Shown here in pieces: positions 2,491 to 28,610 of a stretch of 64,000 nucleotides of DNA. The notes below the pieces were generated by a model, which saw nothing but the letters and a program-made list of their open reading frames with translations, did no database searches and was not told where the DNA came from. The stretch is from Desulfarculaceae bacterium (GTDB taxonomy: Bacteria > Desulfobacterota > Desulfocorpusculales > Desulfocorpusculum), in the NCBI GenBank assembly GCA_037443445.1, contig JBBIOJ010000008.1, forward strand, positions 4,122-68,121, in the 5' to 3' direction. A program made the translations under genes and the position numbers. How positions within the stretch are numbered: position 1 is the stretch's first letter; the number at the start of each line of letters is the position of its first letter.

Positions 2491-4038
2491 ATGTTGAACC
2501 TGGCTCGAAAACCCAGGCCCGAGGACTATCTGGCCTTTGCCTGGAGAAGAAAGTGGTGGATTCTGGTGCCTTTCGTGATTGTCTCGGGCCTTGGGCTGGC
2601 CGTGGTGTACCATCTTCCAAAGCTCTACAGGTCCACCACCTTGATCATGCTTGTGCCCCAGAGGGTGCCCACCGAGTACATCCGCCCCACCGTGACCACC
2701 ACCGTGGAGGAGCGCCTGCAGAGCATTGCAACCCAGGTGCTGAGCCGCACCAATTTGCAGACCATCATAGAGGAGTTCAACCTCTACCCCAAGATGGCGG
2801 CCAAGTCCTCCAAGGAGGAGGTGCTTGAGTTCATGCGCTCCAACATCGAGATAGAGCTGAAAAGAGGCCAGAAAGGAGGGCCCAGGAAAGAGACTGTGGA
2901 CGCCTTTGAGCTGTCCTTTTCCCACTCGGACCCCAAGACCGCCATGCTGGTCACAAACCGCCTGGCCTCCTTTTTCATAGAGCAGAACCTGAAGCTCAGG
3001 GAACAGCAGGCCGAAAGCACGGCAACGTTCCTGGCTGACCAGCTGAAAAAGGTGGAAGCGGATCTGGCTGCCAGGGAGCAGGAGATAGCCCAGTTCAAGG
3101 TAAAACACATGGGGGTGCTCCCCGAGCAGGTCTCGGCCAACCTGGGCATGCTCCAGCAGCTCCAGATGCAATACCAGAGGCTCAACGACAGCATCCGTTC
3201 GGCCGAGGACAGGAAGGTGCTCTACGTGAACCAGATAGCGGAGTTGAGGAGATTCTCTTCGGCGGCAAGGGCAGAGGAGGCGGGAGCTCAGGAGGACATG
3301 CCCTCCCGGCCGGGCCAGCCCACCACCCTGGAGCAGCTGGAGGCCAACCTGGCTCAACTCAGGGCCAAGTACACGGAAAAGCACCCGGACGTGGTGGCCT
3401 TGAAAAAAAGGGTTGAGGAGGCAAGGCAGGCGGGAACCTCTCAGCCAGAGGGGCAGGCTGGCAGCCAGGCACAGGGCCGCATGCGGCGAAGCGGGGCCGC
3501 AAGGGGCGGGCTGGACCAGACCGAGACCATGATTGCCAATGTGCAGGCCCAGCTGGCAGCAACAGAATCAGAGATCCGCCAGCTCAGGGCAGAAGAGCTG
3601 AAGCTCAAGGCCAGGATCAGGGAGTACGAGGAGCGCATAGAGACAGCCCCCCAGATAGAGCAGATGATGACAGACCTGACCCGGGGCTACGACAACACTA
3701 GAAAGCTCTATGAATCGCTCCTGGCCAAGAAGCTTGAGGCAGAGCAGGCAAAGGCCATGGAGCAGCGCCAACAGGGGGAGCAATTTCGAATCCTGGATCC
3801 TGCCCAGATGCCCTCCAAGCCCTGGAAGCCGGACATGCGCAAGATGATAGTGCTTTGCCTTGTGGCCGGGCTGGGGGCAGGGCTGGGGCTGGCCCTCCTG
3901 GTGGACTACAGGGACCGCTCCTTCAAGGACCCGGAGGATCTGGAGGCCTTTGCCGGGCTCAAGGTGGTGGCCATATTGCCGAGAATAGAGATGAAGGAGG
4001 AGTCAGCACGTACTAGGAAAAAGGCCGGCTCGGCCTGA
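2491..4038 (+). CDS. Polysaccharide chain-length determinant / co-polymerase (Wzz/GumC type)
   Basis: Two TM segments flank a coiled coil. Motifs YTEKHPDV and FRILDPAQMPSKPWKP. Confidence 0.92.
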   Translation: MLNLARKPRPEDYLAFAWRRKWWILVPFVIVSGLGLAVVYHLPKLYRSTTLIMLVPQRVPTEYIRPTVTTTVEERLQSIATQVLSRTNLQTIIEEFNLYPKMAAKSSKEEVLEFMRSNIEIELKRGQKGGPRKETVDAFELSFSHSDPKTAMLVTNRLASFFIEQNLKLREQQAESTATFLADQLKKVEADLAAREQEIAQFKVKHMGVLPEQVSANLGMLQQLQMQYQRLNDSIRSAEDRKVLYVNQIAELRRFSSAARAEEAGAQEDMPSRPGQPTTLEQLEANLAQLRAKYTEKHPDVVALKKRVEEARQAGTSQPEGQAGSQAQGRMRRSGAARGGLDQTETMIANVQAQLAATESEIRQLRAEELKLKARIREYEERIETAPQIEQMMTDLTRGYDNTRKLYESLLAKKLEAEQAKAMEQRQQGEQFRILDPAQMPSKPWKPDMRKMIVLCLVAGLGAGLGLALLVDYRDRSFKDPEDLEAFAGLKVVAILPRIEMKEESARTRKKAGSA

Positions 4039-4108: not shown

Positions 4109-5143
4109 ATGTACGAATCCTTCTTCGGTCTTGAGAGAAAGCCCTTTGAGATCACCCCTGACCCGGCCTTCATGTACGCAAGCCCCCAGCACAAGGAGGC
4201 CTTGGCAAGCCTCATCTACGGGGTAAAGGAGAAAAAAGGCCTTATGGTGCTCACCGGGGAGGTGGGCACCGGGAAGACCCTCCTTCTGCGCTGCCTCCTC
4301 CAGATGCTGGGCCCGGACACCAAGACCGCGTACATCATAAACCCCAGGCTCAGCCTCATGGAGTTCTTCCACTCTATGGCCCACGAGTTGGAGCTGGGGG
4401 GGGAATTCCCCACCAAGGCTGCCTTCCTGGAGCGCATCAACGGGTTTCTCCTGGAGACCGCGGCCAAGGGAGGCAGGGCGCTTCTGATAGTGGACGAGGC
4501 CCAGAACCTGGGGCTTCCCATCCTGGAGGAGATAAGGCTCCTGATGAACCTGGAAACTGCCAAGCAGAAGCTTCTCCAGGTGATACTGGCAGGCCAGCCC
4601 GAGCTGCACAAGATCATTGAGTTCAGCTGCATGAGGCAGTTCAAACAAAGGATAAGCCTCAGGGCGCACCTGAACCCTCTCAGCCTGAAGGAGACAGGCC
4701 TTTACATAAGAAGAAGGCTGGAGGTGGCCGGCCTGAAGCAGGGGGAGATCTTCGGGAAGAGGTGCGTGGGTTTGATTCACAACTACAGCTGCGGGATCCC
4801 AAGGCTCATAAACGTGGTTTGCGACAACGCGCTTCTCACGGCCTTTGCCCTTGGGAAAAAGAAGGTGGAGCCTGGGGTTGTGAAGGAGGTCATAGGGGAC
4901 CTGGAGGGAAAGGGGCTCAAGCGAGTGGGAGGGCTCATCTGGCCCAGAGACGAGCGGGACCTGGTACAGGAGTGGACCATGCCCAGAGACCGAGGGAAGG
5001 CCCCGGGGACTGCCAGGTGGGTGTGGGCTGCGGTGGGGCTGGTGGTGGCCCTTGCAGGGGCCCTGGCCATGGTGGGGGGAGGCGCCCAGTGGATTCCCAG
5101 GGTCTGGGCAGGCCTAAAGAGGTTCCTGGATCTGGCAGGGTGA
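4109..5143 (+). CDS. ExeA/GspA-like AAA ATPase (XrtA-system-associated type)
   Basis: MYESFFGLERKPFEITPDP start, Walker A GEVGTGKT, Walker B LIVDEAQNL, GIPRLINVVCD, C-terminal TM helix. Confidence 0.92.
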   Translation: MYESFFGLERKPFEITPDPAFMYASPQHKEALASLIYGVKEKKGLMVLTGEVGTGKTLLLRCLLQMLGPDTKTAYIINPRLSLMEFFHSMAHELELGGEFPTKAAFLERINGFLLETAAKGGRALLIVDEAQNLGLPILEEIRLLMNLETAKQKLLQVILAGQPELHKIIEFSCMRQFKQRISLRAHLNPLSLKETGLYIRRRLEVAGLKQGEIFGKRCVGLIHNYSCGIPRLINVVCDNALLTAFALGKKKVEPGVVKEVIGDLEGKGLKRVGGLIWPRDERDLVQEWTMPRDRGKAPGTARWVWAAVGLVVALAGALAMVGGGAQWIPRVWAGLKRFLDLAG

Positions 5144-5247: not shown

Positions 5248-6123
5248 TTGAGCAAGGTATTCGAGGCATTGAAAAAGGCTGAGAAGGACCAGGGGCTCTT
5301 GGAGCCCGTGCGTTTGGTTTCGGGCCAGGAGGCCCGGGAGGATGGGGGTGATGTGCCCTCGGAGGTGGCAGGCCTTGGTTCGGTGCTGGCCAAGGGCCGG
5401 GAGGAGCCGCCCGCCCGGGTGAGCCCATGGCTCTTGGTCTGCAGCCAGGCACATGGGCACGTGGTGGAGCAGATAAAGCGCTTGAGGACTCATATCCTGC
5501 ATTCAGCGCCGGGTTCGGATGTCCCCAGAGTGATAGTTGTCACAAGCGCCTCTGCAGGGGAGGGGAAGTCTCTTGTCTCGGCCAATCTGGCGGCCAGCAT
5601 AGCCCAAGGCCTGAGAGAGTCGGCCATGCTCGTGGACGCTGACCTCCGCCACGGAAAGCTGCACAGGTTCTTCCATGTGAGACCCTCCCCAGGTCTTTCA
5701 GACTACCTGGCAGGGGATTCAGACCTGGGAGAGGTGGTGCGGGAAACACCAATCCGGAAGCTTTCCCTGGTGACCTGCGGATCCTCAAGGCCAAACCCCA
5801 TAGAGCTCATCTCTTCGGAGCGGATGAGGTCCATGATAGAGCAGGTGCCCTCCCAGAAAGACAAAACCTTCCTGGTCTTGGACACCACCCCAGCCCTTCT
5901 GACAAGCGAACCCAGTATCCTGGCCCGCATGGCAGACGGGGTGGTCTTTGTGGTGCGCCACGACCTGACCCCCAGAAACTGCATCAAAGAAGCCCTGGAA
6001 TACTTCCCCAAGGAAAAGCTCCTGGCCTTGGTGTTCAACGATGTGCCACCCCAGTCCTTGAAGCTTTACGGGCATGCGTACGGATCCTACTACTATTGGG
6101 GCACATACAGGGAAGAAGCATGA
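5248..6123 (+). CDS. CpsD/CapB-family bacterial tyrosine kinase
   Basis: Walker A GEGKS, VDADLR, LDTTP, C-terminal Tyr cluster YGHAYGSYYYW. TTG start after a GGAGG-like RBS. Confidence 0.92.
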   Translation: MSKVFEALKKAEKDQGLLEPVRLVSGQEAREDGGDVPSEVAGLGSVLAKGREEPPARVSPWLLVCSQAHGHVVEQIKRLRTHILHSAPGSDVPRVIVVTSASAGEGKSLVSANLAASIAQGLRESAMLVDADLRHGKLHRFFHVRPSPGLSDYLAGDSDLGEVVRETPIRKLSLVTCGSSRPNPIELISSERMRSMIEQVPSQKDKTFLVLDTTPALLTSEPSILARMADGVVFVVRHDLTPRNCIKEALEYFPKEKLLALVFNDVPPQSLKLYGHAYGSYYYWGTYREEA

Positions 6124-6329
6124 AAGCCGGGATCATTAGCCTGTGCCGGAAGAAATTGGGAATCGGGGGATCCACGTCGAGATTCTTTACACCGACCCGG
6201 ATTGTCCTACGAGCTGGAGCAGATTGGGGGCTTGTGCCCCCGAGCCCCTGGGATGCTTCAAGGGGTTTTGCCGAACGGGGAGGCTCTTTTCAGGTCCGGC
6301 TGCACTACTCCTTCCACATAAAGCAGCAC

Positions 6330-6521
6330 GGGCCGGGGGTGAACCCCGCTCCTACGAGCCCTAACATATTGGAATCAGGAGGTTTGAGGTAGGGGAGGGG
6401 TTTATCCCCTCCCGCAAGGTTTTGGGGTTTTGGTTTTGCCCGGGCATTTCGGGCGGGGGTGAACCCCGCCCTTACGAGACCCATGGACACCGAAATGGGG
6501 GCGGGTGTGGACCCCTGCCTC
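6330..6521. repeat. GTAG-type REP / BIME-like cluster (about 4 REP units)
   Basis: Palindromic units GGGCGGGGGTGAACCCCGCCCCTAC and GTAGGGGAGGGGTTTATCCCCTCCC. Linkers are shared with the cluster at 20834-21145. Confidence 0.8.
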
Positions 6522-6582
6522 GTGGCCCGGCCAATCTAGAAGGGCAGCCCGGCATTCTCCACGAGGGCAGAATCAATCTGGC

Positions 6583-6825
6583 TTAGAGCACCAGGATCAG
6601 GATCCCAGCCCACATGGAGGCGCTCAGAAGCGCCCCCAGGAGGATCCCTTTCATGAATCTGGTTCCTGAGTCCCTGTCCTCCAGAAGTTGGCTAGCGGCT
6701 TGGGAAGGGCCCCCGGGGAGGGCTTCTGCCTGGGGGTTGAAGCCCAAGGGCCCTTGCAGTATTTCATCTCCCAGCCCCTGGCGGGCCTCCTGTGACGAGA
6801 CACTCCATGCGCAATGCTCCATCAC
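6583..6825 (-). CDS. Small protein with a single C-terminal TM helix
   Basis: GGAGG RBS before GTG/ATG, 25 nt downstream of the FN3 gene on the same strand. Hydrophobic C-terminus ILLGALLSASMWAGILILVL. Confidence 0.6.
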   Translation of the reverse strand: MMEHCAWSVSSQEARQGLGDEILQGPLGFNPQAEALPGGPSQAASQLLEDRDSGTRFMKGILLGALLSASMWAGILILVL

Positions 6826-6850
6826 GAACCTCCTATGGGATCATTGCAGC

Positions 6851-7756
6851 TCATTGAATAAGAAAACCTCCCGGAGAAGAGGCCCGGCAGGCCCCGTGGC
6901 TTTCCGAACGAACCACCACTCTGTGGCGTCCGCCTGGCCTGAGTTGCTGGGGCAAGCTCCAGGAGAACTCCCCTGTGTTGGGCACATGGGTGCCTATGAA
7001 ACACAGGCGTCTGGAACCTCGGTGCAGGGACAGGGAAACCGAATCACCGCAGAAGCTGGCCGGGTTCCATCGGATCCAAACCAAATCTCCCCTGGAAAAC
7101 ACGGTCCCTTCCTGGGGAGCCGTGACCAGGGGCTCCAGGATGGAAAAGGTCTTCTGGGATTCATCCATTTCCTGCGGAAGCTGTTTGCCCCGGACCCTGA
7201 GCAAGTAACCCTCCCCAGGGGGGTGTTTCTTTCGCACCCTGAAAAGGAAGGAGCCGTCGTTGGGGGTGGAAGAGCTCAGGGTGATATTTCCAGAGGGGCC
7301 CGCCAGCTCCAGGGAAACACTCGAGGACTCAAAGCCGGCCCACCTGATTTCGTACACACAGCCCCGTGCCCAGGTCACACCCCCGGCTTTGGGGTAAACC
7401 AGTCTGGGCTCTGCGTAGAGATCTGCGAAGACCTCCTGACTGTACCCGCTTTCCAGCCCGTCCAGATTCAAAGCAGTGACAGCAAAGTACCAACGTCCCT
7501 GGGGCAGCTCCAGTGTGTGCTGGCACACCCCGGCGCTGCACTGTCTGGAGCCCACTTCTTCATGGAGGCTGTAAGTTCGAGAGGAGTTGCCGTAGTAAAG
7601 ACGGTAGCTCCTGATGCGCTCCTCAGGGGGGGATTCGTCCCAGGCCAAGGTTACCTGGAGAGCCCTGGCCTGCCCCGTGAGGCAGGAAAAGAAAAGCCAG
7701 ATTAAAGCCAGGCCGTGGGGAATGAAAAGTGTTGTATTTTTGTCGCTACGAGTCAA
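6851..7756 (-). CDS. Secreted protein: FN3-like domain + two Ig-like (Kre9/GPI-anchored-type) domains
   Basis: Signal peptide ending ARA. VTLAWD...YRLYYG...WYFAVTALN..GLESGYS. Two repeats of P.GG..W..G..Y.I.W and NDG/NTG.F.W. Confidence 0.8.
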   Translation of the reverse strand: MTRSDKNTTLFIPHGLALIWLFFSCLTGQARALQVTLAWDESPPEERIRSYRLYYGNSSRTYSLHEEVGSRQCSAGVCQHTLELPQGRWYFAVTALNLDGLESGYSQEVFADLYAEPRLVYPKAGGVTWARGCVYEIRWAGFESSSVSLELAGPSGNITLSSSTPNDGSFLFRVRKKHPPGEGYLLRVRGKQLPQEMDESQKTFSILEPLVTAPQEGTVFSRGDLVWIRWNPASFCGDSVSLSLHRGSRRLCFIGTHVPNTGEFSWSLPQQLRPGGRHRVVVRSESHGACRASSPGGFLIQ

Positions 7757-7870
7757 GAAAATCCCTCTCCAGAAGGATCCGGATCCTGGAAGAACAGAGC
7801 CCCGAGGCCGCAGGCCGAGGATTTGTCGGCTTTTTCCCCCATGGTTTCTTTTTTCTTCTCTTTGGCCTTA

Positions 7871-7885
7871 GCAGGAAAGATGCCA
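7871..7885 (-). promoter_or_regulatory. Putative sigma54 (-24/-12) promoter
   Basis: Minus strand TGGCATCTTTCCTGC has exact GG-N10-GC spacing, about 115 nt upstream of the 7756 gene. Confidence 0.6.
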
Positions 7886-8340
7886 TGGCTTGAACCAATT
7901 CTTGGCCGGGAGGGGAAGGACACAAAGGTTGCGCAGGACTCGGATCTTGGGGCCCGGGGGCCTGGGATCCCAGGAAACCCCGGGGGAAAGCGAGAAAGTG
8001 CATGGGATCCGCGGGTGCCCACGTCCTAGAGAGGGCCATCCTGCACATGATGGCTCCTGGGCCCTTGAGTAATAAATTAAATCTCAAGTTGCTTAGCATC
8101 TACAAGCTCAAATGTCAAGTGAGGAATTGATGCATAACCATTGGATTTTCCAGTTTATGGCTGGATAGGCCCATGTGCCTGGGCCCACCTTGGGAACTGT
8201 AGCCCCCAAGCCCTTTGGGGATTGCCTTGAGGGAGGGGTCTTCTCCCATGTGGCGGAGCCCGGGTCAAGACCCAAACGAATTTGTTTGCACCTGGGCCCC
8301 GGAATGGTTAGAATCGGCCTGGAGGTTTTTGGGGGGAGAA

Positions 8341-8586
8341 ATGCAAGGAGCCGGAGTGGGGATTCCCGGTGAGAGTGTTGCCTTGAGCACGGTGGAAAGA
8401 AGAGTGGCCGAGAGACGTGTTGGGGACAGGAGAAAAGGGGAGAGGAGAGCCCCGGTTGTGGACTACGGGTTTCTTCTCTCTGGGGTGGCCTGCAGGCGTA
8501 GCGGTCAGGACAGGAGGGTGGCAGAGAGACGGCAGGGGGAAAGGAGAAGAGGCACGCAGGGCTACTTGGGGATACCTGCCCAGTAG
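8341..8586 (+). CDS. Small Arg-rich protein with repeated (D/E)RR motifs
   Basis: GGAG RBS before ATG 8341. ERRVAERRVGDRRKGERR...RRSGQDRRVAERRQGERRR. Confidence 0.65.
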   Translation: MQGAGVGIPGESVALSTVERRVAERRVGDRRKGERRAPVVDYGFLLSGVACRRSGQDRRVAERRQGERRRGTQGYLGIPAQ

Positions 8587-8714
8587 CCCTTCAATTCGAA
8601 ACAGGCCCTTTCAGAAGGCTGTTCTGAGTTTTCCTTGCTTGACCCAAGGACAAATTGGGTCAAGGGGACCTGGGCATCTTAGGCCAGAACCCCTTGACCC
8701 CAATTTTTTTCCGG

Positions 8715-10286
8715 CTATTCTTTGCGGCTCAGCTTCAGGCCCTTGGGGGGCGAGGGGGCCGTGTTTACCCGGATGGTGAAGCTCTTGGACTGGGTGGCCC
8801 CGTCGTCATCTCTTACCTGCACGAGGGCTGTGAAAGTCCCCTCCACACTATAGGTGTGCTGGGTGACCAACCTGGTGTCAGTGGTACCGTCCCCGAAATC
8901 CCAGAGCACAGAGACTATTTGGCCATCGGGGTCAGATGCTGAGGCAGTGAAGGAAACCGTAAGGGGTGGCGCACCCCTGAGGGGTGAGGCCTCGGCAGTG
9001 AGACTGGGAGGCTGGTTGGGGGGCTGAACTGTTATCTGGATTGACTTGGAGGCCGTGGCCCCTGCATCGTCCCTCACGGTGAGGGTGGCAGTGTAGGTTC
9101 CTGCTGTGCTGTAAGTGTGTGTGGGGCTTTGCTGGGTGGAGCCGAGGCCATCACCGAAAGCCCAGGAGTAGCTGGTGACAGTGCCGTCGGGGTCTGTACC
9201 AGACCCCACGAAGGCTACGGTCAAGGGCGCATGCCCCGAGGTGGGTGTGGCAGTCAAGTTGGCAGAAGGGGGCTGATTCGGGGCCGTGACCGTGATCTGC
9301 ACCGAGGCCGAGGCAGTTGCCCCGTCATCATCCCTCACGGTCAGACGGGCTGTGTACTGGCCAGCACTGTTGTAAAGGTGGGAAGGATTTGCCTGGGAAG
9401 AGGAACCTCCGTCCCCGAAGTCCCAAGAGTAGCTGGCAATGCTCCCGTCACTGTCAGAGGCCGATGAAGAGAAGGAAACATTCAAGGGAGCCTGGCCTGA
9501 TAGGGGAGCCGCGGAGATGCTCAGCGTTGGAGGCAGATTAGGGGGAAGCACGTTGATCTGCACTGTGGCGCTGGCCGTGGCCCCGTCATTGTCGCTGATT
9601 GTCAAGCGGGCAGTGAAAGTGCCGGCAGTAGTAAAGGTGTGGGAAGGATTCTGGAGATTGGAAGAAGCCCCGTCCCCGAAATCCCAGGAGTAGGACACTA
9701 TGGTGCCGTCCTGGTCCGTGCCGTTGCCCTGGAAACTCACTGTCAGGGGGGCGTGGCCCGAGCCAGGAGATGAGGAGGCCGAGGCCTGGGGAGGGAGATT
9801 GTTCCTGGCGCTCACCTCGTTGGAATACCCGCTCTCATTCCCCTCTGTGTCATACGCGGTCACGGCAAAGTAATACGTGACCCCGTCTTGGAGCCCTGTC
9901 AGGGTGTACTGGGTGAGGTTGCCCACATCCATGTTTTGTTGGTAGCTGCGGGAGGAGGTCCCGTAGTAGAGCTTGTAACCGGCCAGATCAGGCTCCTGAT
10001 TGGGATCCCAGGCCAGGGTGAAGCTGGCCCCGGGGCTGGAAACAGGGAAGACAAGCCAATTGAAAAGAAAGACCCAGGACCAAAGCCAGAAGGAAGGCCT
10101 GCCTCCTGGGAACCCCGGGCCGGACCACCGGGGCCTGAAGCCATGCTGAGGCCCTGTTCCGAGGCCTTCTGCGAGAGACCTAGGAACTCCTCTTTCCCCG
10201 TTCTGCCTGATCCCCACCCCTGAGCTCCCGGGCATTTTCCTGCTCAACCCTTCCAGTCTTTGCCCCTCTGCAATACTTGCCAACAA
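8715..10286 (-). CDS. Secreted FN3 + 4x PKD-domain protein (true start probably downstream of 10286)
   Basis: FTLAWDPN...YKLYYG...YYFAVTAYD, followed by four APL.V.F...D.DG.I.SY.W(D/A)FGDG repeats. Confidence 0.9.
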   Translation of the reverse strand: MLASIAEGQRLEGLSRKMPGSSGVGIRQNGERGVPRSLAEGLGTGPQHGFRPRWSGPGFPGGRPSFWLWSWVFLFNWLVFPVSSPGASFTLAWDPNQEPDLAGYKLYYGTSSRSYQQNMDVGNLTQYTLTGLQDGVTYYFAVTAYDTEGNESGYSNEVSARNNLPPQASASSSPGSGHAPLTVSFQGNGTDQDGTIVSYSWDFGDGASSNLQNPSHTFTTAGTFTARLTISDNDGATASATVQINVLPPNLPPTLSISAAPLSGQAPLNVSFSSSASDSDGSIASYSWDFGDGGSSSQANPSHLYNSAGQYTARLTVRDDDGATASASVQITVTAPNQPPSANLTATPTSGHAPLTVAFVGSGTDPDGTVTSYSWAFGDGLGSTQQSPTHTYSTAGTYTATLTVRDDAGATASKSIQITVQPPNQPPSLTAEASPLRGAPPLTVSFTASASDPDGQIVSVLWDFGDGTTDTRLVTQHTYSVEGTFTALVQVRDDDGATQSKSFTIRVNTAPSPPKGLKLSRKE

Positions 10287-10319
10287 CCCCGATTAGATCC
10301 CCCTCTCATAGCCAAGGGC

Positions 10320-11294
10320 CTACTGTGCGGCAAAGTACCCCTCGGAATATCCGAAGCAGCCCTTGTTCCAACTGGCGGCTATCTTTATGCGGTAGCGGCT
10401 GCTGGGCTTGAGCTCCGGGGGGACCTCCCACTGGTAATAGCCCGTGTTGGGGGCCGAGGGGGCAATGCTCAAGACCTGCCTCGTACCCTTGAGAAGGGAT
10501 ATTTCCACCTCAGGGCCGCAGAAGGTCTCTGGATCCCAGATGATGCTTTGCGGGTTTGCCTTCTCCAGCAAAGTCCCCTTGGCAGGGGATATTACAGTGG
10601 GGGCCACTATCCGGAACTCCTCCTCCGAGGAATCGGCCTCCTGTTTCCCAGAGACCCTCACACTGTAGCCCTCCCCGGGCTGTACCTTCTTGCTCACGAC
10701 CCAGGAGAAGACCCCGTCGTTCTTAGTGCCCTTGGCGATTTTCCTTGCCGGAACCCCGTCTTTCAGAAGCTCCAAGGTGAGCTTGGGGTCAGAGAAATTC
10801 TCCCAGAGGATGTCGTAGGAACAGCCCCTGATCCAGGTGATTGTGCCGTTGGGATAGACGAGGGTGGGCTCCAGGCTTCCAGAGATCACGTGGAGCTCCT
10901 GGCTAAAGTCGCTTTCATTCGCTTGCTGGTCAAAGGCTGTCACAGCCACGTACCAGTGGCCTGGCTCCAGATCCACCTCTGCAGTGCAGGAGTTCCCCTG
11001 GCAGGCCTCTGTGCCCAGGGGCAAATGGTAATGGTATTGGCGAGGTTCAGAACCCCAGTAAAGGATATAGCCTGCCACGTCAGGCTCAGGGCTGCGGTCC
11101 CATTGGAAGCGAAAGCTCTCCCCCATGGCAGAGCCAGCCACAACGAGCAGGAGTGCCTGGCCCAGAAGCCCTGCAAGCCCCCAAGGGCCCCTCCTGTTCA
11201 AAATTGTCCTTGGTTTCACAAAATCGTAATTCCTCTCTGGCCCAACATCCTGCCCCACCCGATCAATCACATTTAATATCGCTAAGTTATCCAT
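10320..11294 (-). CDS. Secreted FN3 + two Ig-like (Kre9-type) domain protein, paralogue of 6851..7756
   Basis: Same architecture and shared motifs (CxxxxC in FN3, W.RGC, FCG, PNTG...W). Start placed downstream of the sigma54-like site; exact start uncertain. Confidence 0.8.
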   Translation of the reverse strand: MDNLAILNVIDRVGQDVGPERNYDFVKPRTILNRRGPWGLAGLLGQALLLVVAGSAMGESFRFQWDRSPEPDVAGYILYWGSEPRQYHYHLPLGTEACQGNSCTAEVDLEPGHWYVAVTAFDQQANESDFSQELHVISGSLEPTLVYPNGTITWIRGCSYDILWENFSDPKLTLELLKDGVPARKIAKGTKNDGVFSWVVSKKVQPGEGYSVRVSGKQEADSSEEEFRIVAPTVISPAKGTLLEKANPQSIIWDPETFCGPEVEISLLKGTRQVLSIAPSAPNTGYYQWEVPPELKPSSRYRIKIAASWNKGCFGYSEGYFAAQ

Positions 11295-11334
11295 TGTGCG
11301 ATCCCCTCTTGCTTTCTTGACTTCCCTGCAATAC

Positions 11335-11348
11335 GCAAGGGTTGTGCC
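11335..11348 (-). promoter_or_regulatory. Putative sigma54 promoter
   Basis: Minus strand GGCACAACCCTTGC, an exact GGCAC-N5-TTGC match. Confidence 0.7.
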
Positions 11349-11553
11349 CAAGGGGAAAGCTTGTTGAACCCAACCTGGGAGGTGGATGTTGGTTCGGGAG
11401 ATTCTGGTTCCGGGGAAAAGGGGGGTGTATTCCCTGGCTCAGAGCCCTTGGGAAATGCTCCAGGTCAGGGGGGAGGTCCCATTTGGGAACGCCGGGCACG
11501 ATTTTGTAACAGATTTTTCTCTGCACAGGGCAAGCAGCCTTGTTTTTCAACAA

Positions 11554-11567
11554 GGCACAAGGCTTGC
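11554..11567 (+). promoter_or_regulatory. Putative sigma54 promoter
   Basis: GGCACAAGGCTTGC, an exact GGCAC-N5-TTGC match, 36 nt upstream of ATG 11604. Confidence 0.7.
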
Positions 11568-11603
11568 ATATTCACACGGTGCGAGACAGGCAGGAGAGGT
11601 CAA

Positions 11604-11870
11604 ATGAGTGTGGAGAACGCCAAGACTTGCGAGATCCTGACCAGGCGCATATCCCTGACCCGCATCGAAAGTGTGGGACAGGACCCAAAGGGCGTGGTGG
11701 TGGGCTGGGAGTACGCCCCCCCCAGAAAAGGGGAGCGTTACGCGGTTTACCTGGGCAAGGGCCGGGTACTCAGGACCAGTGTGGTGGAAGATGTGAGGGA
11801 GAACATGGGCTCCTTGCTCATCAAGACCGCCAACTCCATCTACAAGGTGCAGTATCTCAACGGGAAGTAA
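11604..11870 (+). CDS. Small hypothetical beta-rich protein (88 aa)
   Basis: GGAGAGG RBS, strong GC3 codon bias, LRTSVV...IKTANSIY motif. Confidence 0.75.
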   Translation: MSVENAKTCEILTRRISLTRIESVGQDPKGVVVGWEYAPPRKGERYAVYLGKGRVLRTSVVEDVRENMGSLLIKTANSIYKVQYLNGK

Positions 11871-12498
11871 CCGGCTCTTCTTGTCCCATGTCCCTCGGGG
11901 CCGCAAGAGCCCTGCCCCTGGGGGTGGCCTTTGGGGGGGCAGCCCCCCTGATGGAGAAAAATTCCAACCCCATCCTCAGGCTTTCCAGGTTTCGCTCCAG
12001 AAGGGCACTCCTGGAAAGGGCCCTCAGCCCCTTTTCTATCTCCGGGGCGGAAAAGGGAAGCCAGCCCAGGGCACAGGCTGCCCCCAGCAGCACAAGGTTA
12101 GCCCCCAGGGGAAAACCTGCCTGCTGGGCAATGCACATGGCCGGCACACTCTCCGCTTTTATGCCCATGGCAGCCAGGTACCCGCCTACTGCTGGAAGCC
12201 AAAGCTTGCCCTTGCCTTTCTCTAGAAGCAGAAGGCCTCCTTTCTTGAGGTAGGCCAGATGCCTGAGACCTTCATCCTCGTTGAGTCCAAGGAGCAGATC
12301 CGCCTTCCCCTTCCTGATCAGAGGCCCCGCCTCTTTTCTGCCCAGCCTCAGGTGAGATACCACGGAGCCGCCCCTTTGGGCCATCCCGTGGGTCTCACAA
12401 GCACAGACAGGCCAACCCTTTTCCAGGCCCAGGTGGGCCAGAAGCCCGGTCACGAAAAGGATTCCCTGCCCGCCCACACCTGCAAGGAGCAGATTCAC
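11857..12498 (-). CDS. iorB: Indolepyruvate:ferredoxin oxidoreductase, beta subunit
   Basis: AGVGGQG, ETHGMAQRGGSV, ANLVLLG. Overlaps the iorA stop. Confidence 0.92.
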   Translation of the reverse strand: MNLLLAGVGGQGILFVTGLLAHLGLEKGWPVCACETHGMAQRGGSVVSHLRLGRKEAGPLIRKGKADLLLGLNEDEGLRHLAYLKKGGLLLLEKGKGKLWLPAVGGYLAAMGIKAESVPAMCIAQQAGFPLGANLVLLGAACALGWLPFSAPEIEKGLRALSRSALLERNLESLRMGLEFFSIRGAAPPKATPRGRALAAPRDMGQEEPVTSR

Positions 12499-24252: not shown

Positions 24253-25623
24253 ATGCGAGAAGATGCCAGGGCGATTTTCCAGGCTGCCCTGGCTGCAGTG
24301 GACCCCGAGGAGGCAGTTCTCAGGCACCTTAAGCTGGATGGGGAGCTCCTCCAGGTGGGGGAGTTGGGCCTGGAGTTAAACAGGTTTGAGAAGATCTGGA
24401 TCTTGGGTGCCGGAAAAGCCAATGCGCCCATGGCCCGCGCCTTGGAAAGGCTGCTGGGAGACAGGATCTCAGGGGGATTGATAGTGGTAAAGGAGGGCCA
24501 CGGCCTGAACTTGGGGCGGGTACAGGTTTGGGAGGCCTCGCATCCCCTGCCTGACCAGAGGGGCGTGGAGGGGACCAGCAGGGTGCTCCAACTGGCAAGC
24601 AAAGCCGGCCCAAGGGACTTGGTCTTGGCTCTTTTTTCAGGGGGTGGATCAGCCTTGCTGGTGGCCCCAGCCCAGGGGCTCTGTCTTGAGGACAAGCAGC
24701 AGACCACAAGAGTGCTCCTGGCATGTGGGGCCACCATCCACGAGATCAATACTGTGAGGAAACACCTCTCCCTGGTCAAGGGCGGCCAGCTGGCCAGGGC
24801 CTGTTATCCGGCCACGGTACTCAGCCTGATCCTGTCGGACGTGATAGGGGACGACCTGGATGCCATAGCCTCGGGGCCCACAGTCCCTGACACCAGCACT
24901 TACGCCCAAGCCAGGGAGGTGCTCCTGAAGTACGGGGTCTGGGGAAGTGTCCCGGAAGCTGTAAGGGAAAGGCTGGAGGCGGGCTGCCAGGGAAGACTTG
25001 AGGAGACCCCCAAGGCGGAAGACCCCTGCTTTCAGAACACCCACTGGAAAATACTGGGGAGCAACCTAGAGGCACTAAAGGCTGCCAAGGTCCACGCCGA
25101 GAAGATAGGTTACAGGGCTTTGGTGCTCAGCTCGGGCATGGAGGGGGAGGCCAGAGAGGTGGCAAGGGCCCTGGCAGCAATGGCCAAGGAGGTGCTCAGA
25201 TCCGGGAATCCCATACCGGCTCCGGCATGCCTACTTTGCGGTGGTGAGACCACCGTGACCCTCAGGGGCGGTGGGAAAGGAGGCCGAAACCAGGAGTTTG
25301 TGCTGGCAGCGGCCATGGCCCTGGAGGGCTGGGAGAATGTGGTGGTTCTGAGCGCAGGCACCGATGGGACAGATGGTCCCACTGACGCGGCAGGGGCTTT
25401 GGCAGACGGTAGCACGGTACAGAGGGCTCGCAAAACCGGTCTTTCGCCTGAGGCCCATCTCATGGAGAACGATTCCTACAACTTCTTCAGGTCCTTGGGT
25501 GAGCTCTTGGTTACGGGGCCTACCAGGACCAATGTGATGGATGTAAACATCTTCTTGATGCGTGAGTCCAAGGTAAGAACTTGCTTCGGCTTCAAACAAG
25601 AAGGGGGAAAAAAGTTGGAATGA
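24253..25623 (+). CDS. Class II glycerate kinase (MOFRL/TtuD family)
   Basis: GAGKA, SHPLPD, SGGGSAL, KGGQLA, GGETTV, GGRNQE, TDGTDGPT, TNVMD. Start uncertain. Confidence 0.93.
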   Translation: MREDARAIFQAALAAVDPEEAVLRHLKLDGELLQVGELGLELNRFEKIWILGAGKANAPMARALERLLGDRISGGLIVVKEGHGLNLGRVQVWEASHPLPDQRGVEGTSRVLQLASKAGPRDLVLALFSGGGSALLVAPAQGLCLEDKQQTTRVLLACGATIHEINTVRKHLSLVKGGQLARACYPATVLSLILSDVIGDDLDAIASGPTVPDTSTYAQAREVLLKYGVWGSVPEAVRERLEAGCQGRLEETPKAEDPCFQNTHWKILGSNLEALKAAKVHAEKIGYRALVLSSGMEGEAREVARALAAMAKEVLRSGNPIPAPACLLCGGETTVTLRGGGKGGRNQEFVLAAAMALEGWENVVVLSAGTDGTDGPTDAAGALADGSTVQRARKTGLSPEAHLMENDSYNFFRSLGELLVTGPTRTNVMDVNIFLMRESKVRTCFGFKQEGGKKLE

Positions 25624-25721
25624 GAGAAGAACGGCAGGCCAGACCCTGTGAACAGAGATTGTGGAGGGAGGGGCTGCCTCAAATTGGAATGGGGAACTCA
25701 AAAAAACAGGGAGGAAGATCC

Positions 25722-28610
25722 ATGGGGAGGCTTTTGGTTGCTCTTTGGCTTGCGACTTTGGCTTTGGTGGGGCTGGCCCAGGCTCAGGAACCGGTTCTCA
25801 TCGGAAGGGTGGCACACATAGAAGGAGGGGTGCTTCGGTACGTGACCGTGGAGGACGACTGGGTGGCAACCGTGGCCGACTCTCCCCTTAGGGCAGATGA
25901 CATCATATACACCGAGCCTGCGGGGAGGGCTGAGTTCATATTCCCCAACAACACCTGGGTTCGGGTGGATGGAAACACGGGTGTGGATGTGGTTGCCCTG
26001 AGAAGGGATCTCACTGGCATTTACGTGGATGGGGGAGTGCTGCGGGTTTACAACAGGAGCCAGGAGGCTCTGGTGAGGGTGGAGACCCGCCTGGGTTACC
26101 TGGCTGCTGAGCCAGGGGACGTGGTGGATCTCTACGTGGGGGACGAGGATATCCAGGTCATAGCCCTGGAGGGCTCTCCCAACTTCTTTTACATAGGCAG
26201 GGGCAGAGAGGAGATCCGCTACGAGGTCCTGGCAGACGGCCCGGCCATTTTCGTTGACGAGATGAGTGTGGAGGCGGCCGAGCCCCTGGTGGACAGGGAC
26301 TGGGAAAGCTGGAACTACAAGAGGGATCAGCTCCTGGCCGAGCGCAGGCGGGTTCGCTCAGCCCATCTCCCCGAGGCTTTTCAGTACGATGCACAGGTGT
26401 TCGAGACCCAGGGCAGATGGGAGAGGGTCTATTACAGGGAGAAATACGTCTGGTGCTGGACACCCATCCATGTGGACGTTAGCTGGAGGCCCTTCACGGT
26501 GGGGCGCTGGACCACATACTACGAGGAGAACGTGTGGGTTCCTTATGAGCCCTGGGGTTGGGTGACACATCACCACGGGCACTGGATACAAGTGGAAAAC
26601 AGGTGGTGGTGGACGCCATACGTCTCTGTGAACGTGGTGACTCCAGGGGTGGATGTGAGGGTGGATGTGGGAGTCCCCCCTCCGCCGGACTACTACTGGT
26701 ACTGGCATCCGGGACGTGTGGCATGGATCCACAGCGAGGTGCACGTGGGATGGTTCCCCCTTGCCCCATGGGAGCCGTACTATGGCTGGTATCCATGGTA
26801 CGGGAACACGGTGGTAGTGAACAACACCAACATAACGAATATCAACATCAACATCTCCAATTACAATTATTTCAGTAACGCGGTGGTAGTTAATTACAAC
26901 AACTTCTACAATGTGCCATACGGTAACAACTATATTCAGAATAATGTCATAAACGTGACCAACGTCAACAATACAACTATAATAAACAATTACCATGCGG
27001 CTCCTGTTATCCACAAGACGGTGATAAAAAATCAAAATTTTTTCAAGAATCAATATAATTTTTCCGACCGGCAAATTGTTTACAAGCCGCATCACTCGGT
27101 CGTGGAGAAGGCCTCCTTTGCCAAGAGCAGTTTTCAGAAACACGGGTTCACCAGTGCTGCCGATTATCACGGCAAGCGGGACAGGGTTCTCAAAGCAGAT
27201 CCCCCCCTGGGGGATGCGCACAAAAGAGCGCGGGGGCTGGCGGCAGCCAACAAGCTCGTAAAGCCGGAGGAGGTGAAAAAGCCGGCGGGTCAGATGAAGT
27301 TCGGCTCCAAGGAGCCCAAGCTTCAGGCAGAGAGGCCCAAGCTGCACGAAGCCGAAAAGCAAAGCTCAAGGCAGATAAAACAGGCAGCCTCCCAAGGGGG
27401 ACTCGGCCGGGAAGGTCGCACCGGAAGACCGGGGAAAGGGGGCCTCCAGGAGGCCACCGGGAAGGCAAGGGATGAGAAGCCGGGGGTTTCCGGGGGAAGA
27501 AGGGGCAAGGAGGATTCCCTGAGGCCCACCGGTCAGGAAACAAGACAGGACAGGCCCCCGAGGGACAGAGATGTGAAGCTGCAAGGGGAAGGCAGAAAGG
27601 GAGTGGTGGAGGACTCTGGAGGCCGGGCAGGCAGACGCCTCAGGCCAGAGCAGGAAGTGAAGCGTGGTGAGCTCAAGAGCGGAGCCGGGTCAGGTGAACC
27701 GGAGAAAACAAGCCAGGGAGGTCAAAAGCGGGTAGAGGGCAGGCGCACAGGCCGGCCGGGGCCTGCCGGAGCTGAGACAGGGCTAAAGGGCATGGAAAAA
27801 CAAGGCGGCGCGGCCCAGTTGGAAGACCGGCCCGGCCATGGCAGGAGGGACACAGAGAAAGCCACCAGGTCAAAGGGGCTGGACAGGCCAGAGGAGGCCA
27901 AGGGACATGGCCAGCCTTCCATGGAAAAGCCCAAACAGAGGGGTCTCCAGGAAGGCTCCTCCAGGGGGGAGCCCCAAAGCAGCACAGGCGGCCCCCAGAA
28001 GCCTCAGGACAGACTCAAGGCCTCAGGGCAGGAGCAAAAACCGGACAAACAGAAATCTTCCCAGGGCCCTGGACAGGCAAGACAGGAGCTGAGACCCGGA
28101 CAGGAAAGAAAACAGCTCCAAGAACAGGGACCCTCGCACCAAGGCTCCCACCAAAGGCAGCAGCAACCAACACAGGAGCAGGGTAGACAAAAACCCAAGC
28201 AGCAGCTCCCAGAGCAGCAAAAGCCCAAACAGCAAGGGCAGGTTCACCAGGGACAACCCCAAATGCAGCAGCAGCACCAGGGCCAGCAAAGACAGTTGCA
28301 GCAACAGCAGCAGCAACACAAACAGATGCAGCACCAGCAACAACAGCCAAGACAGGAGCTAGGAGGCCAGAAACCCAAGCAGCAGCTCCCAGAGCAGCAA
28401 AAGCCCAAACAGCAAGGGCAGGTTCACCAGGGACAACCCCAAATGCAGCAGCAGCACCAGGGCCAGCAAAGACAGTTGCAGCAACAGCAGCAGCAACACA
28501 AACAGATGCAGCAGCCAGGCCCTCAGGGCCAGCGCGTCCAGCAGCCGCAGCACGAGGACCCACAAAAGAGGAAAAAGAAGCCTCAGCATGGAGAGCAGCC
28601 CCAGCAGTAA
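25722..28610 (+). CDS. Secreted FecR-like + DUF6600-like protein with an Asn-rich segment and a long disordered Gln-rich tail
   Basis: GGAGG RBS and signal peptide. WRPF..GRW...WVPYEPWGWVTHHHGHW...VGWFPLAP.E. Low-complexity C-terminal half. Confidence 0.85.
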   Translation: MGRLLVALWLATLALVGLAQAQEPVLIGRVAHIEGGVLRYVTVEDDWVATVADSPLRADDIIYTEPAGRAEFIFPNNTWVRVDGNTGVDVVALRRDLTGIYVDGGVLRVYNRSQEALVRVETRLGYLAAEPGDVVDLYVGDEDIQVIALEGSPNFFYIGRGREEIRYEVLADGPAIFVDEMSVEAAEPLVDRDWESWNYKRDQLLAERRRVRSAHLPEAFQYDAQVFETQGRWERVYYREKYVWCWTPIHVDVSWRPFTVGRWTTYYEENVWVPYEPWGWVTHHHGHWIQVENRWWWTPYVSVNVVTPGVDVRVDVGVPPPPDYYWYWHPGRVAWIHSEVHVGWFPLAPWEPYYGWYPWYGNTVVVNNTNITNININISNYNYFSNAVVVNYNNFYNVPYGNNYIQNNVINVTNVNNTTIINNYHAAPVIHKTVIKNQNFFKNQYNFSDRQIVYKPHHSVVEKASFAKSSFQKHGFTSAADYHGKRDRVLKADPPLGDAHKRARGLAAANKLVKPEEVKKPAGQMKFGSKEPKLQAERPKLHEAEKQSSRQIKQAASQGGLGREGRTGRPGKGGLQEATGKARDEKPGVSGGRRGKEDSLRPTGQETRQDRPPRDRDVKLQGEGRKGVVEDSGGRAGRRLRPEQEVKRGELKSGAGSGEPEKTSQGGQKRVEGRRTGRPGPAGAETGLKGMEKQGGAAQLEDRPGHGRRDTEKATRSKGLDRPEEAKGHGQPSMEKPKQRGLQEGSSRGEPQSSTGGPQKPQDRLKASGQEQKPDKQKSSQGPGQARQELRPGQERKQLQEQGPSHQGSHQRQQQPTQEQGRQKPKQQLPEQQKPKQQGQVHQGQPQMQQQHQGQQRQLQQQQQQHKQMQHQQQQPRQELGGQKPKQQLPEQQKPKQQGQVHQGQPQMQQQHQGQQRQLQQQQQQHKQMQQPGPQGQRVQQPQHEDPQKRKKKPQHGEQPQQ
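28191..28513 (+). repeat. Exact 143-nt intragenic duplication, offset 180 nt
   Basis: 28191-28333 is identical to 28371-28513. Confidence 0.9.

Follow-up and report, generated by a model that had tools for sequence, protein, structure and literature searches.

What becomes of a secreted protein whose first domain lacks a strand that its own C-terminus appears to carry? The question is raised by a 64,000-nucleotide stretch of DNA (the window) from an uncultured member of the Desulfarculaceae, relatives of sulfate reducers (assembly GCA_037443445.1, contig JBBIOJ010000008.1, positions 4,122 to 68,121, forward strand). Three neighbouring minus-strand genes in this window, here called A, B and C, encode proteins that begin with an incomplete fibronectin type III (FN3) domain, and the central one, B (8715-10235), codes for a signal peptide, an FN3 head devoid of strand A, four PKD domains and a short C-terminal tail that reads as the absent strand. 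The explanation that we prefer, and to which we give roughly an even chance, is that B is an FN3 protein that has been split and, in effect, circularly permuted, and whose molecules complete one another in trans by chaperone-free strand complementation, forming a matrix fibre or cross-linker beside an exopolysaccharide (EPS) locus.

From a probable ATG at 10235, B comprises 506 residues; its open reading frame (ORF) reaches back to 10286, and B has 500 residues in the public gene call. In all three proteins a hydrophobic N-terminal segment is followed by a small-residue cleavage motif located just before the sequence ...TLAWD or ...FQWD. The cleavage sites are our own inference from the sequence, and in B the predicted cut falls between ...SSPGA and SFTLAWD. 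In the resulting mature numbering, the head, or socket (9801-10028, minus strand), spans residues 1-76 and FN3 strands B to G; the shaft (8766-9788, minus strand) spans residues 81-421 and consists of the four PKD domains (Pfam PKD_4, E 1.4e-83, 4 stretches); and the tail, or plug (8718-8765, minus strand), with the sequence NTAPSPPKGLKLSRKE, spans residues 422-437 and corresponds to strand A of an FN3 domain together with half of the A-B loop. Gene A (6851-7756, minus strand, 301 residues) joins a signal peptide and an A-less FN3 head to two Kre9_KNH-type Ig-like domains (Pfam, E 2.8e-09). In gene C (10320-11351, minus strand) the A-less FN3 head is preceded by a long N-terminal region, which is conserved, and then a hydrophobic segment, and is again followed by two Kre9_KNH-type domains (E 9.7e-15). 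Neither has a tail, and both are sockets only.

An initial annotation of this DNA had proposed that each of the three secreted proteins starts at FN3 strand B directly after its signal peptide, and the three minus-strand ORFs bear this out. The Pfam fn3 match in B covers profile positions 14-83 of 84 and starts at residue 87 of ORF B, immediately past the predicted cleavage; in A the alignment begins at profile position 15, at residue 34. B exceeds the curated cut-off of PF00041 (36.3 against 25 bits), A scores 16.7 bits and C gives no fn3 match at E 0.01 or better, while the heads of A and C are related to that of B at E 1.1e-11 and 5.0e-11. When the B head is aligned with FN3 domains in the PDB (1k85, 5j7k, 4yfe and 1x5z), query residue 2 pairs with their residue 17-33, showing that about 16 or more residues precede the aligned start in complete FN3 domains. 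An AlphaFold2 model of mature B, built from a 16-row alignment (A1) with a mean predicted local distance difference test (pLDDT) score of 92.4, gives the head six strands (residues 3-6, 15-23, 31-36, 40-43, 52-60 and 72-74) at block pLDDT values of 90-94, and no seventh. Heads of the B type occur three times in the whole genome, in A, B and C only.

The second half of the pair lies at the other end of B. As the initial annotation had it, B finishes in an orphan strand A and its two neighbours do not: read in sequence, the protein closes with ...RVNTAPSPPKGLKLSRKE before the stop codon, against ...GGFLIQ in A and ...GYFAAQ in C. The last 13 residues of B, PSPPKGLKLSRKE (8718-8756), equal in number the 13 positions absent from a head that begins at fn3 profile position 14, and head and tail are in this sense complementary halves. 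The spacing agrees as well. Among 285 internal FN3 copies located in 150 representatives, the last Pro most often stands at a distance of 16 from the Trp (135 copies), and the equivalent spacing in B, made up of nine tail residues after the Pro, six mature head residues and one for the Trp, is also 16. A strand-A weight matrix built from 133 unique internal 13-mers (consensus PAAPQILSATAGN, with Pro fixed at position 4 by construction) scores the B tail at 12.1 bits, a value reached by 1.4e-5 of 70,775 background 13-mers drawn from PKD-rich homologues. Applied to 15 family tails, the matrix places 14 at a background fraction of 0.007 or less, and P0100, which has Leu for the second Pro, at 0.39. 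The sequence PAVPKGLKV serves as strand A of one natural, complete FN3 domain, in P0184 (one strict motif match in 150 proteins). The genome has 16,452 stop-to-stop frames of at least 100 residues, and 3 of them finish in the strict form of the tail motif: B and one frame each on contigs C7 and C13. The idea that the tail is kept merely by an overlapping gene was rejected: no plus-strand ORF comes closer than one that stops at 8586, and synonymous variation is seen in the tail codons.

Conservation in homologues had been suggested as a check on the tail motif, and the motif is indeed conserved. Among the best 120 of 5,547 homologues, with heads called by a sequence pattern, the tail is present in 16 of 18 head-bearing FN3-PKD proteins and in none of 102 head-less PKD proteins; the 16 tail-bearing homologues are kin rather than independent cases and include the window's own protein and two near-duplicates. 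The head-bearing proteins without a tail are P0052, which has extra C-terminal domains, and P0080. All 15 aligned orthologues have a tail of 12-14 residues, whether they carry two, three or four PKD domains. In genomes related to that of the window (G000), the tails read NAAPSPPKGLKLSKK after three PKD domains (G001), NAAPSAPKGLKVGRR after four (G002), and NAAPSRPKGLKIGKIK and NAAPRRPKGVRFAGSR after two (G003 and G006, respectively). Between G000 and G001 the 12 tail codons show six synonymous differences and one replacement, and synonymous differences equal or outnumber replacements in 7 of 10 genome pairs, the other three pairs all involving G006. Covariation of tail and head, assessed by eye across the A1 orthologues, gave too few independent changes for any signal.

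Docking of the tail in models, also suggested at the outset, was obtained at the expected position. A complex of the B head (residues 1-82) with the fourth PKD domain and tail (residues 336-437), both cut from alignment A1, reached an interaction prediction score from aligned errors (ipSAE) of 0.67 (runs 0.69, 0.66 and 0.67) compared with 0.04 for the best of three controls. The runs share at least 94% of contacts, and the partner has a pLDDT of at least 82. On the partner side the interface is formed by residue 353 and by residues 422-435 of the tail; on the head side, strand B contributes residues 3-8, strand F residues 54-60, and the F-G loop with strand G residues 64-72. Leu431 contacts Leu5, Ala6, Trp7, Phe54-Val56, Ser69, Asn70 and Val72, and the modelled tail sits where strand A lies in a normal FN3 domain. 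Conservation of the tail, this controlled model and monomer models that do not close on themselves together uphold the earlier claim that the tail is a strand A able to complete the A-less head of another molecule, with the proviso that the model supports binding of head and tail without showing it.

The complementary halves, the conserved tail, the predicted docking in trans and the synteny described below come directly from the computations, and an assembly route can be proposed on their basis. Sec export and signal-peptide cleavage would leave an FN3 head made up of strands B to G, its edge open at the place of strand A and separated from the C-terminal strand A by a rigid PKD rod. The tail, as the last part to leave the translocon, would then pair antiparallel to strand B of another molecule's head, with Leu431 filling the core beside Trp7, and a seven-strand FN3 domain would be rebuilt with a nick in its A-B loop. 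B would in this way chain head to tail, and as the termini of FN3 domains lie at opposite poles of the fold, each joint would continue the rod. The single free B tail might alternatively be taken by A or C, which would end the chain or link it elsewhere through the Kre9_KNH-type domains. Assembly would proceed without a chaperone or usher, and the product would be a protein fibre, or a cross-linker or scaffold, of the exopolysaccharide matrix from the neighbouring XrtA/PEP-CTERM locus. The genome, which is 99.94% complete, has no match to PapD_N (PF00345) or Usher (PF00577), and its four secretin genes lie elsewhere than this locus; the genes that neighbour the trio belong to other families. 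Binding in vivo, a homopolymer and the length of the polymer, capping by A and C, passage of the outer membrane and a matrix function are parts of the proposal that we infer, as are any role of an 80-residue membrane ORF downstream of A, such as that of the anchor suggested at the outset, and the avoidance of premature chaining.

Several points weigh against this proposal. The open socket is in itself ordinary and proves nothing, because A-less first FN3 domains are common in tail-less proteins: an N-terminal A-less head is present in 23 of 150 library representatives and the tail in 0 of 150. AlphaFold2 models the B head confidently as a six-strand domain with no donor at all, and given that A-less heads are also widespread without tails, the socket is probably stable by itself and the head independent of completion. 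As to the complex, the ipSAE mark is reached by 58 of 80 solved complexes and by 2 of 110 mismatched pairs, a calibration that holds only roughly here because our own 16-row alignment was used. Since intact FN3 domains fill the PDB, the pass may moreover amount to recall of the fold; the model shows a head and tail that resemble an FN3 domain cut in the A-B loop and is no demonstration of binding in the cell. Different programs produced the monomer and the complex models, and the contrast of cis with trans is not a clean control. A fused FN3-PKD-FN3-PKD form is absent among the 120 longer homologues listed, where the tail-like motif occurs in none and a head-like motif far from the N-terminus in two; this search is weak evidence, as giant PKD proteins crowd the list of longer homologues. 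As a periplasmic protein of a diderm, B would also have to avoid premature chaining and cross the outer membrane, and the source lineage is known solely from metagenome bins.

The same complementarity of head and tail would be seen if the tail completed the head of its own chain, the PKD loop then forming a triangle, square or pentagon for two, three or four PKD domains. Intrachain closure is favoured at low concentration, geometry permitting, and rods of near-equal length could in principle close into a polygon, a point of geometric reasoning on our part. AlphaFold2 leaves the ring open, however: in the monomer of mature B the tail (422-437) is coil with block pLDDT values of 71 and then 53, and in the two-PKD orthologue of G003 the tail (248-263) is likewise coil (74 and then 54). 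The number of PKD domains varies from two to four while tail and head stay the same, and completion in trans is favoured over a ring because the latter needs sharp turns at short, proline-rich inter-domain linkers for every one of these PKD numbers. Closed monomers would, in addition, leave the conserved neighbouring socket-only paralogues without a partner, and we regard such rings as quite improbable. The initial argument for intermolecular completion, which rested on the four PKD domains lying between head and tail, agrees with the unclosed state of the four-PKD and two-PKD monomer models. In a fold search, the best matches of the two-PKD orthologue model were generic rod-like tandem Ig/FN3 arrays such as SiiE and GhpA.

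Alternatively, the heads may be complete at six strands and the basic C-terminus may have another job, as a tag by which the protein is recognised for export, for processing or for being attached to polysaccharide or to the membrane, or as a ligand that binds A and C but never B. A-less heads are, after all, common without tails and modelled as stable, basic residues end the tail in most orthologues, and the locus adjoins an XrtA/PEP-CTERM system, whose cargo bear C-terminal sorting tags. Yet the tail matches FN3 strand A in both sequence and exact length, is placed at the strand-A position by a model of high confidence and is found on none of the 102 head-less proteins. It has neither a PEP motif nor a hydrophobic segment, and a reading of it as a PEP-CTERM sorting tag was rejected on these grounds; on balance we consider a separate job for the tail unlikely. 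The tail might also be a vestige, the functionless leftover start of a downstream FN3 domain that was lost. PKD-to-FN3 junctions in longer proteins resemble the end of B, and truncation after strand A offers a simple origin for such an end. A neutral remnant should shorten and drift, however, whereas this tail is kept in 16 of the 18 head-bearing homologues, down to 54% identity and at a constant 12-14 residues, with codons that differ mainly synonymously among the closer genomes, and we find the loss of a domain very improbable as an account of it. Completion in trans is the reading we retain in what follows.

Heads that lack strand A extend well beyond the three proteins of the window. Within the subfamily, tandem-FN3 proteins likewise open at strand B in the copy that follows the signal peptide, and a normal P..P...L strand A is present in their internal copies. 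Proteins P0172, P0248, P0279, P0281 and P0213, which come from many sources, have a first FN3 domain without strand A and internal copies with it. Judged from such sequences, an A-less first copy is apparently a general, undescribed habit of secreted FN3 arrays. In G003 (locus L016, 7127-9634) and G006 (locus L008, 1348-3829), genes directly downstream of a Wzz-like gene code for a signal peptide, an A-less FN3 domain, at least two PKD domains and FG-GAP-like repeats; the tail is absent from the copy of G003, which is complete, and that of G006 runs off its locus. The head is thus put to use again on other EPS-linked proteins. It is possible, though we advance it tentatively, that these elements define a new class of chaperone- and usher-free fibres, in which rods of two to four PKD domains are chained by a split FN3 domain with a socket freed by signal-peptide cleavage, socket-only adaptors (A, C and the relatives' FG-GAP proteins) plug in cargo, and the A-less first FN3 domain of secreted bacterial proteins is a general socket for strand-A tags. 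Such heads are very common, with 49,815 library proteins matching that of B at E 0.001 or better.

Protein C differs from A and B in what precedes its head. As an ORF it has 343 residues, and the public gene call, with an ATG at 11294, has 324. In C and its orthologues (window 11120-11294, minus strand), a conserved stretch of about 40 residues (NYDFV..RTILN) leads into some 21 hydrophobic residues, a segment lying directly against the FN3 head. On account of this arrangement, C might be an uncleaved, membrane-anchored socket instead of a secreted protein. The C family is tiny, with 12 proteins at E 1e-5 or better, and a look-up of C in the ESM Atlas returned merely generic Ig-like leads with scores of 0.88 or lower. 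NCBI names the orthologues of C 'Ser-Thr-rich GPI-anchored membrane family protein' and those of B 'PKD domain-containing protein'. For A, a reading as a lipoprotein was rejected, the cysteine in its signal peptide not being conserved.

The three genes adjoin an EPS locus, a claim of the initial annotation that is confirmed and can be sharpened, by NCBIfam matches, to the XrtA/PEP-CTERM type. On the plus strand these matches name an XrtA/PEP-CTERM type export protein (1875-2462), a chain length determinant (2491-4038), an XrtA/PEP-CTERM system ATPase (4109-5143) and a tyrosine autokinase (5248-6123); the models are, in gene order, TIGR03027, TIGR03007, TIGR03015 and TIGR03018, with TIGR03007 alone above its curated cut-off. 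The NCBIfam scan also places a PEP-CTERM-associated outer-membrane protein (362-1690) next to them. An exosortase and one PEP-CTERM protein are encoded on another contig, and the single frame that PF07589 matches in this genome lies on contig C66, with no match to A, B or C. The gene order C-B-A is common to G000, G001, G002 and G003; G006 has C-B, its contig ending there. Orthologues of B and C bear adjacent NCBI accessions.

Smaller ORFs accompany the cluster. Downstream of A, a minus-strand ORF of 80 residues (6583-6825) with a hydrophobic C-terminal segment has no Pfam family and is kept, by tblastn, in two genomes of the same genus (65% over 74 residues in G002, 50% over 82 in G001). Between A and B, a plus-strand ORF of 123 residues (8215-8586) abounds in repeated RR..(D/E)RR motifs and again has no Pfam family; it is kept beside the B orthologue at 61% over 96 residues in G002 and 55% over 78 in G001, and more weakly in G006. 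Such conservation of sequence makes it probably a real small gene, and the 960-bp 'gap' between A and B is on its account not empty. Upstream of C, a divergent plus-strand ORF (11361-11870) without a Pfam or NCBIfam family has its last 90 or so residues 97% identical in G002, and matches at 72% over 155 residues in G001 and 36% over 72 in G003. Farther along the window, two identical 31-base stretches set 180 bases apart (28270-28300 and 28450-28480, minus strand) lie inside an ORF of 1009 residues (25581-28610) that has no NCBIfam family, and these repeats point to a tandem repeat of 60 residues.

The sigma54-like promoters that had been reported for the cluster do not hold up. A scan for the consensus TGGCAC-N5-TTGCW that tolerated as many as 2 mismatches found 40 sites in the window, where 41.3 would be expected, and the minus-strand matches near gene starts (7870-7885, 10355-10370 and 11334-11349) are no more than chance would give. 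Across 6000-12000, a scan for sigma-70 promoters and terminators stayed at the level of shuffled sequence, and Rfam returned nothing at E up to 1. The initial interpretation of the locus is, as a whole, partly supported.

Adhesion and biofilm structure in bacteria and archaea rely centrally on fibres held together by donor-strand complementation, and to our knowledge the known bacterial systems of this kind in diderms depend either on a chaperone with an usher or on a dedicated protease. If completion in trans is correct, B would represent a far simpler route to a fibre, one that uses the Sec pathway alone and places both halves of a split FN3 domain on one rod protein, leaving the length module, i.e. 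the number of PKD domains, free to evolve. It would also provide a concrete and testable protein scaffold for EPS loci of the PEP-CTERM type, whose matrix proteins are poorly understood, and a natural plug-and-socket pair for protein engineers. Were the socket role to extend to many A-less first FN3 domains, a trait that is common among secreted proteins and has been ignored would acquire a meaning. Some caution is in order, as open FN3 sockets without plugs are common.

How does such an arrangement compare with known systems? The chaperone-usher pili (Pap, Fim, Caf1 and CupE) resemble it in that an Ig-like subunit lacks one strand, which is supplied by a terminal extension of its neighbour; unlike B, they use an N-terminal donor, lack the last strand of the fold and depend on an obligatory PapD chaperone and usher. 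TasA of Bacillus and the archaeal bundling pili, threads and cannulae are reported to be, like the proposed B fibre, secreted biofilm-matrix subunits that form usher-free donor-strand polymers (PMC9674648, PMC9245690, PMC9715654, PMC12518558). They have other folds, single-domain subunits and N-terminal donors, and none of them is known to be an FN3 domain cut in the A-B loop with a multi-domain spacer. For the Pam pili of the Candidate Phyla Radiation, it has been proposed from models that PamR, a membrane-anchored, RbmA-like protein with two FN3 domains, attaches to a donor-strand fibre by means of an additional strand at its N-terminus; the Pam pilins themselves, unlike B, are not FN3 domains and need membrane-anchored chaperones (PMC13278184). 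The NCBIfam model of PamR, NF058578, scores 28.2 bits on B against a cut-off of 300, and does so on the PKD stretch. In the full-text literature searched, whose coverage leaves subscription journals outside, there is no FN3-based or PKD-containing donor-strand fibre and no FN3 domain split in this way, and the full-text literature on PEP-CTERM systems with FN3 or PKD domains likewise holds no such fibre.

The closest logic to that of B is found in the type V pili, which couple the loss of an N-terminal strand by proteolysis with a C-terminal donor. In these pili of the Bacteroidota (FimA, Mfa1), the N-terminal strand is cut off after export and the groove so formed is filled by the C-terminal strand of the next subunit, and neither a chaperone of the PapD type nor an usher takes part. 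The type V pilins are lipoproteins, are processed by an arginine protease and have a two-domain pilin fold of their own. In the B family and in the A and C families no cysteine is conserved at the cleavage site, and their domains are FN3, PKD and Kre9_KNH rather than the FimA/Mfa1 fold. Beyond the principle of strand donation, which B would follow, the present system has none of the features that define the chaperone-usher and type V pili; in their place, B would rely on ordinary signal-peptide cleavage, an FN3 fold and a PKD rod set between socket and plug.

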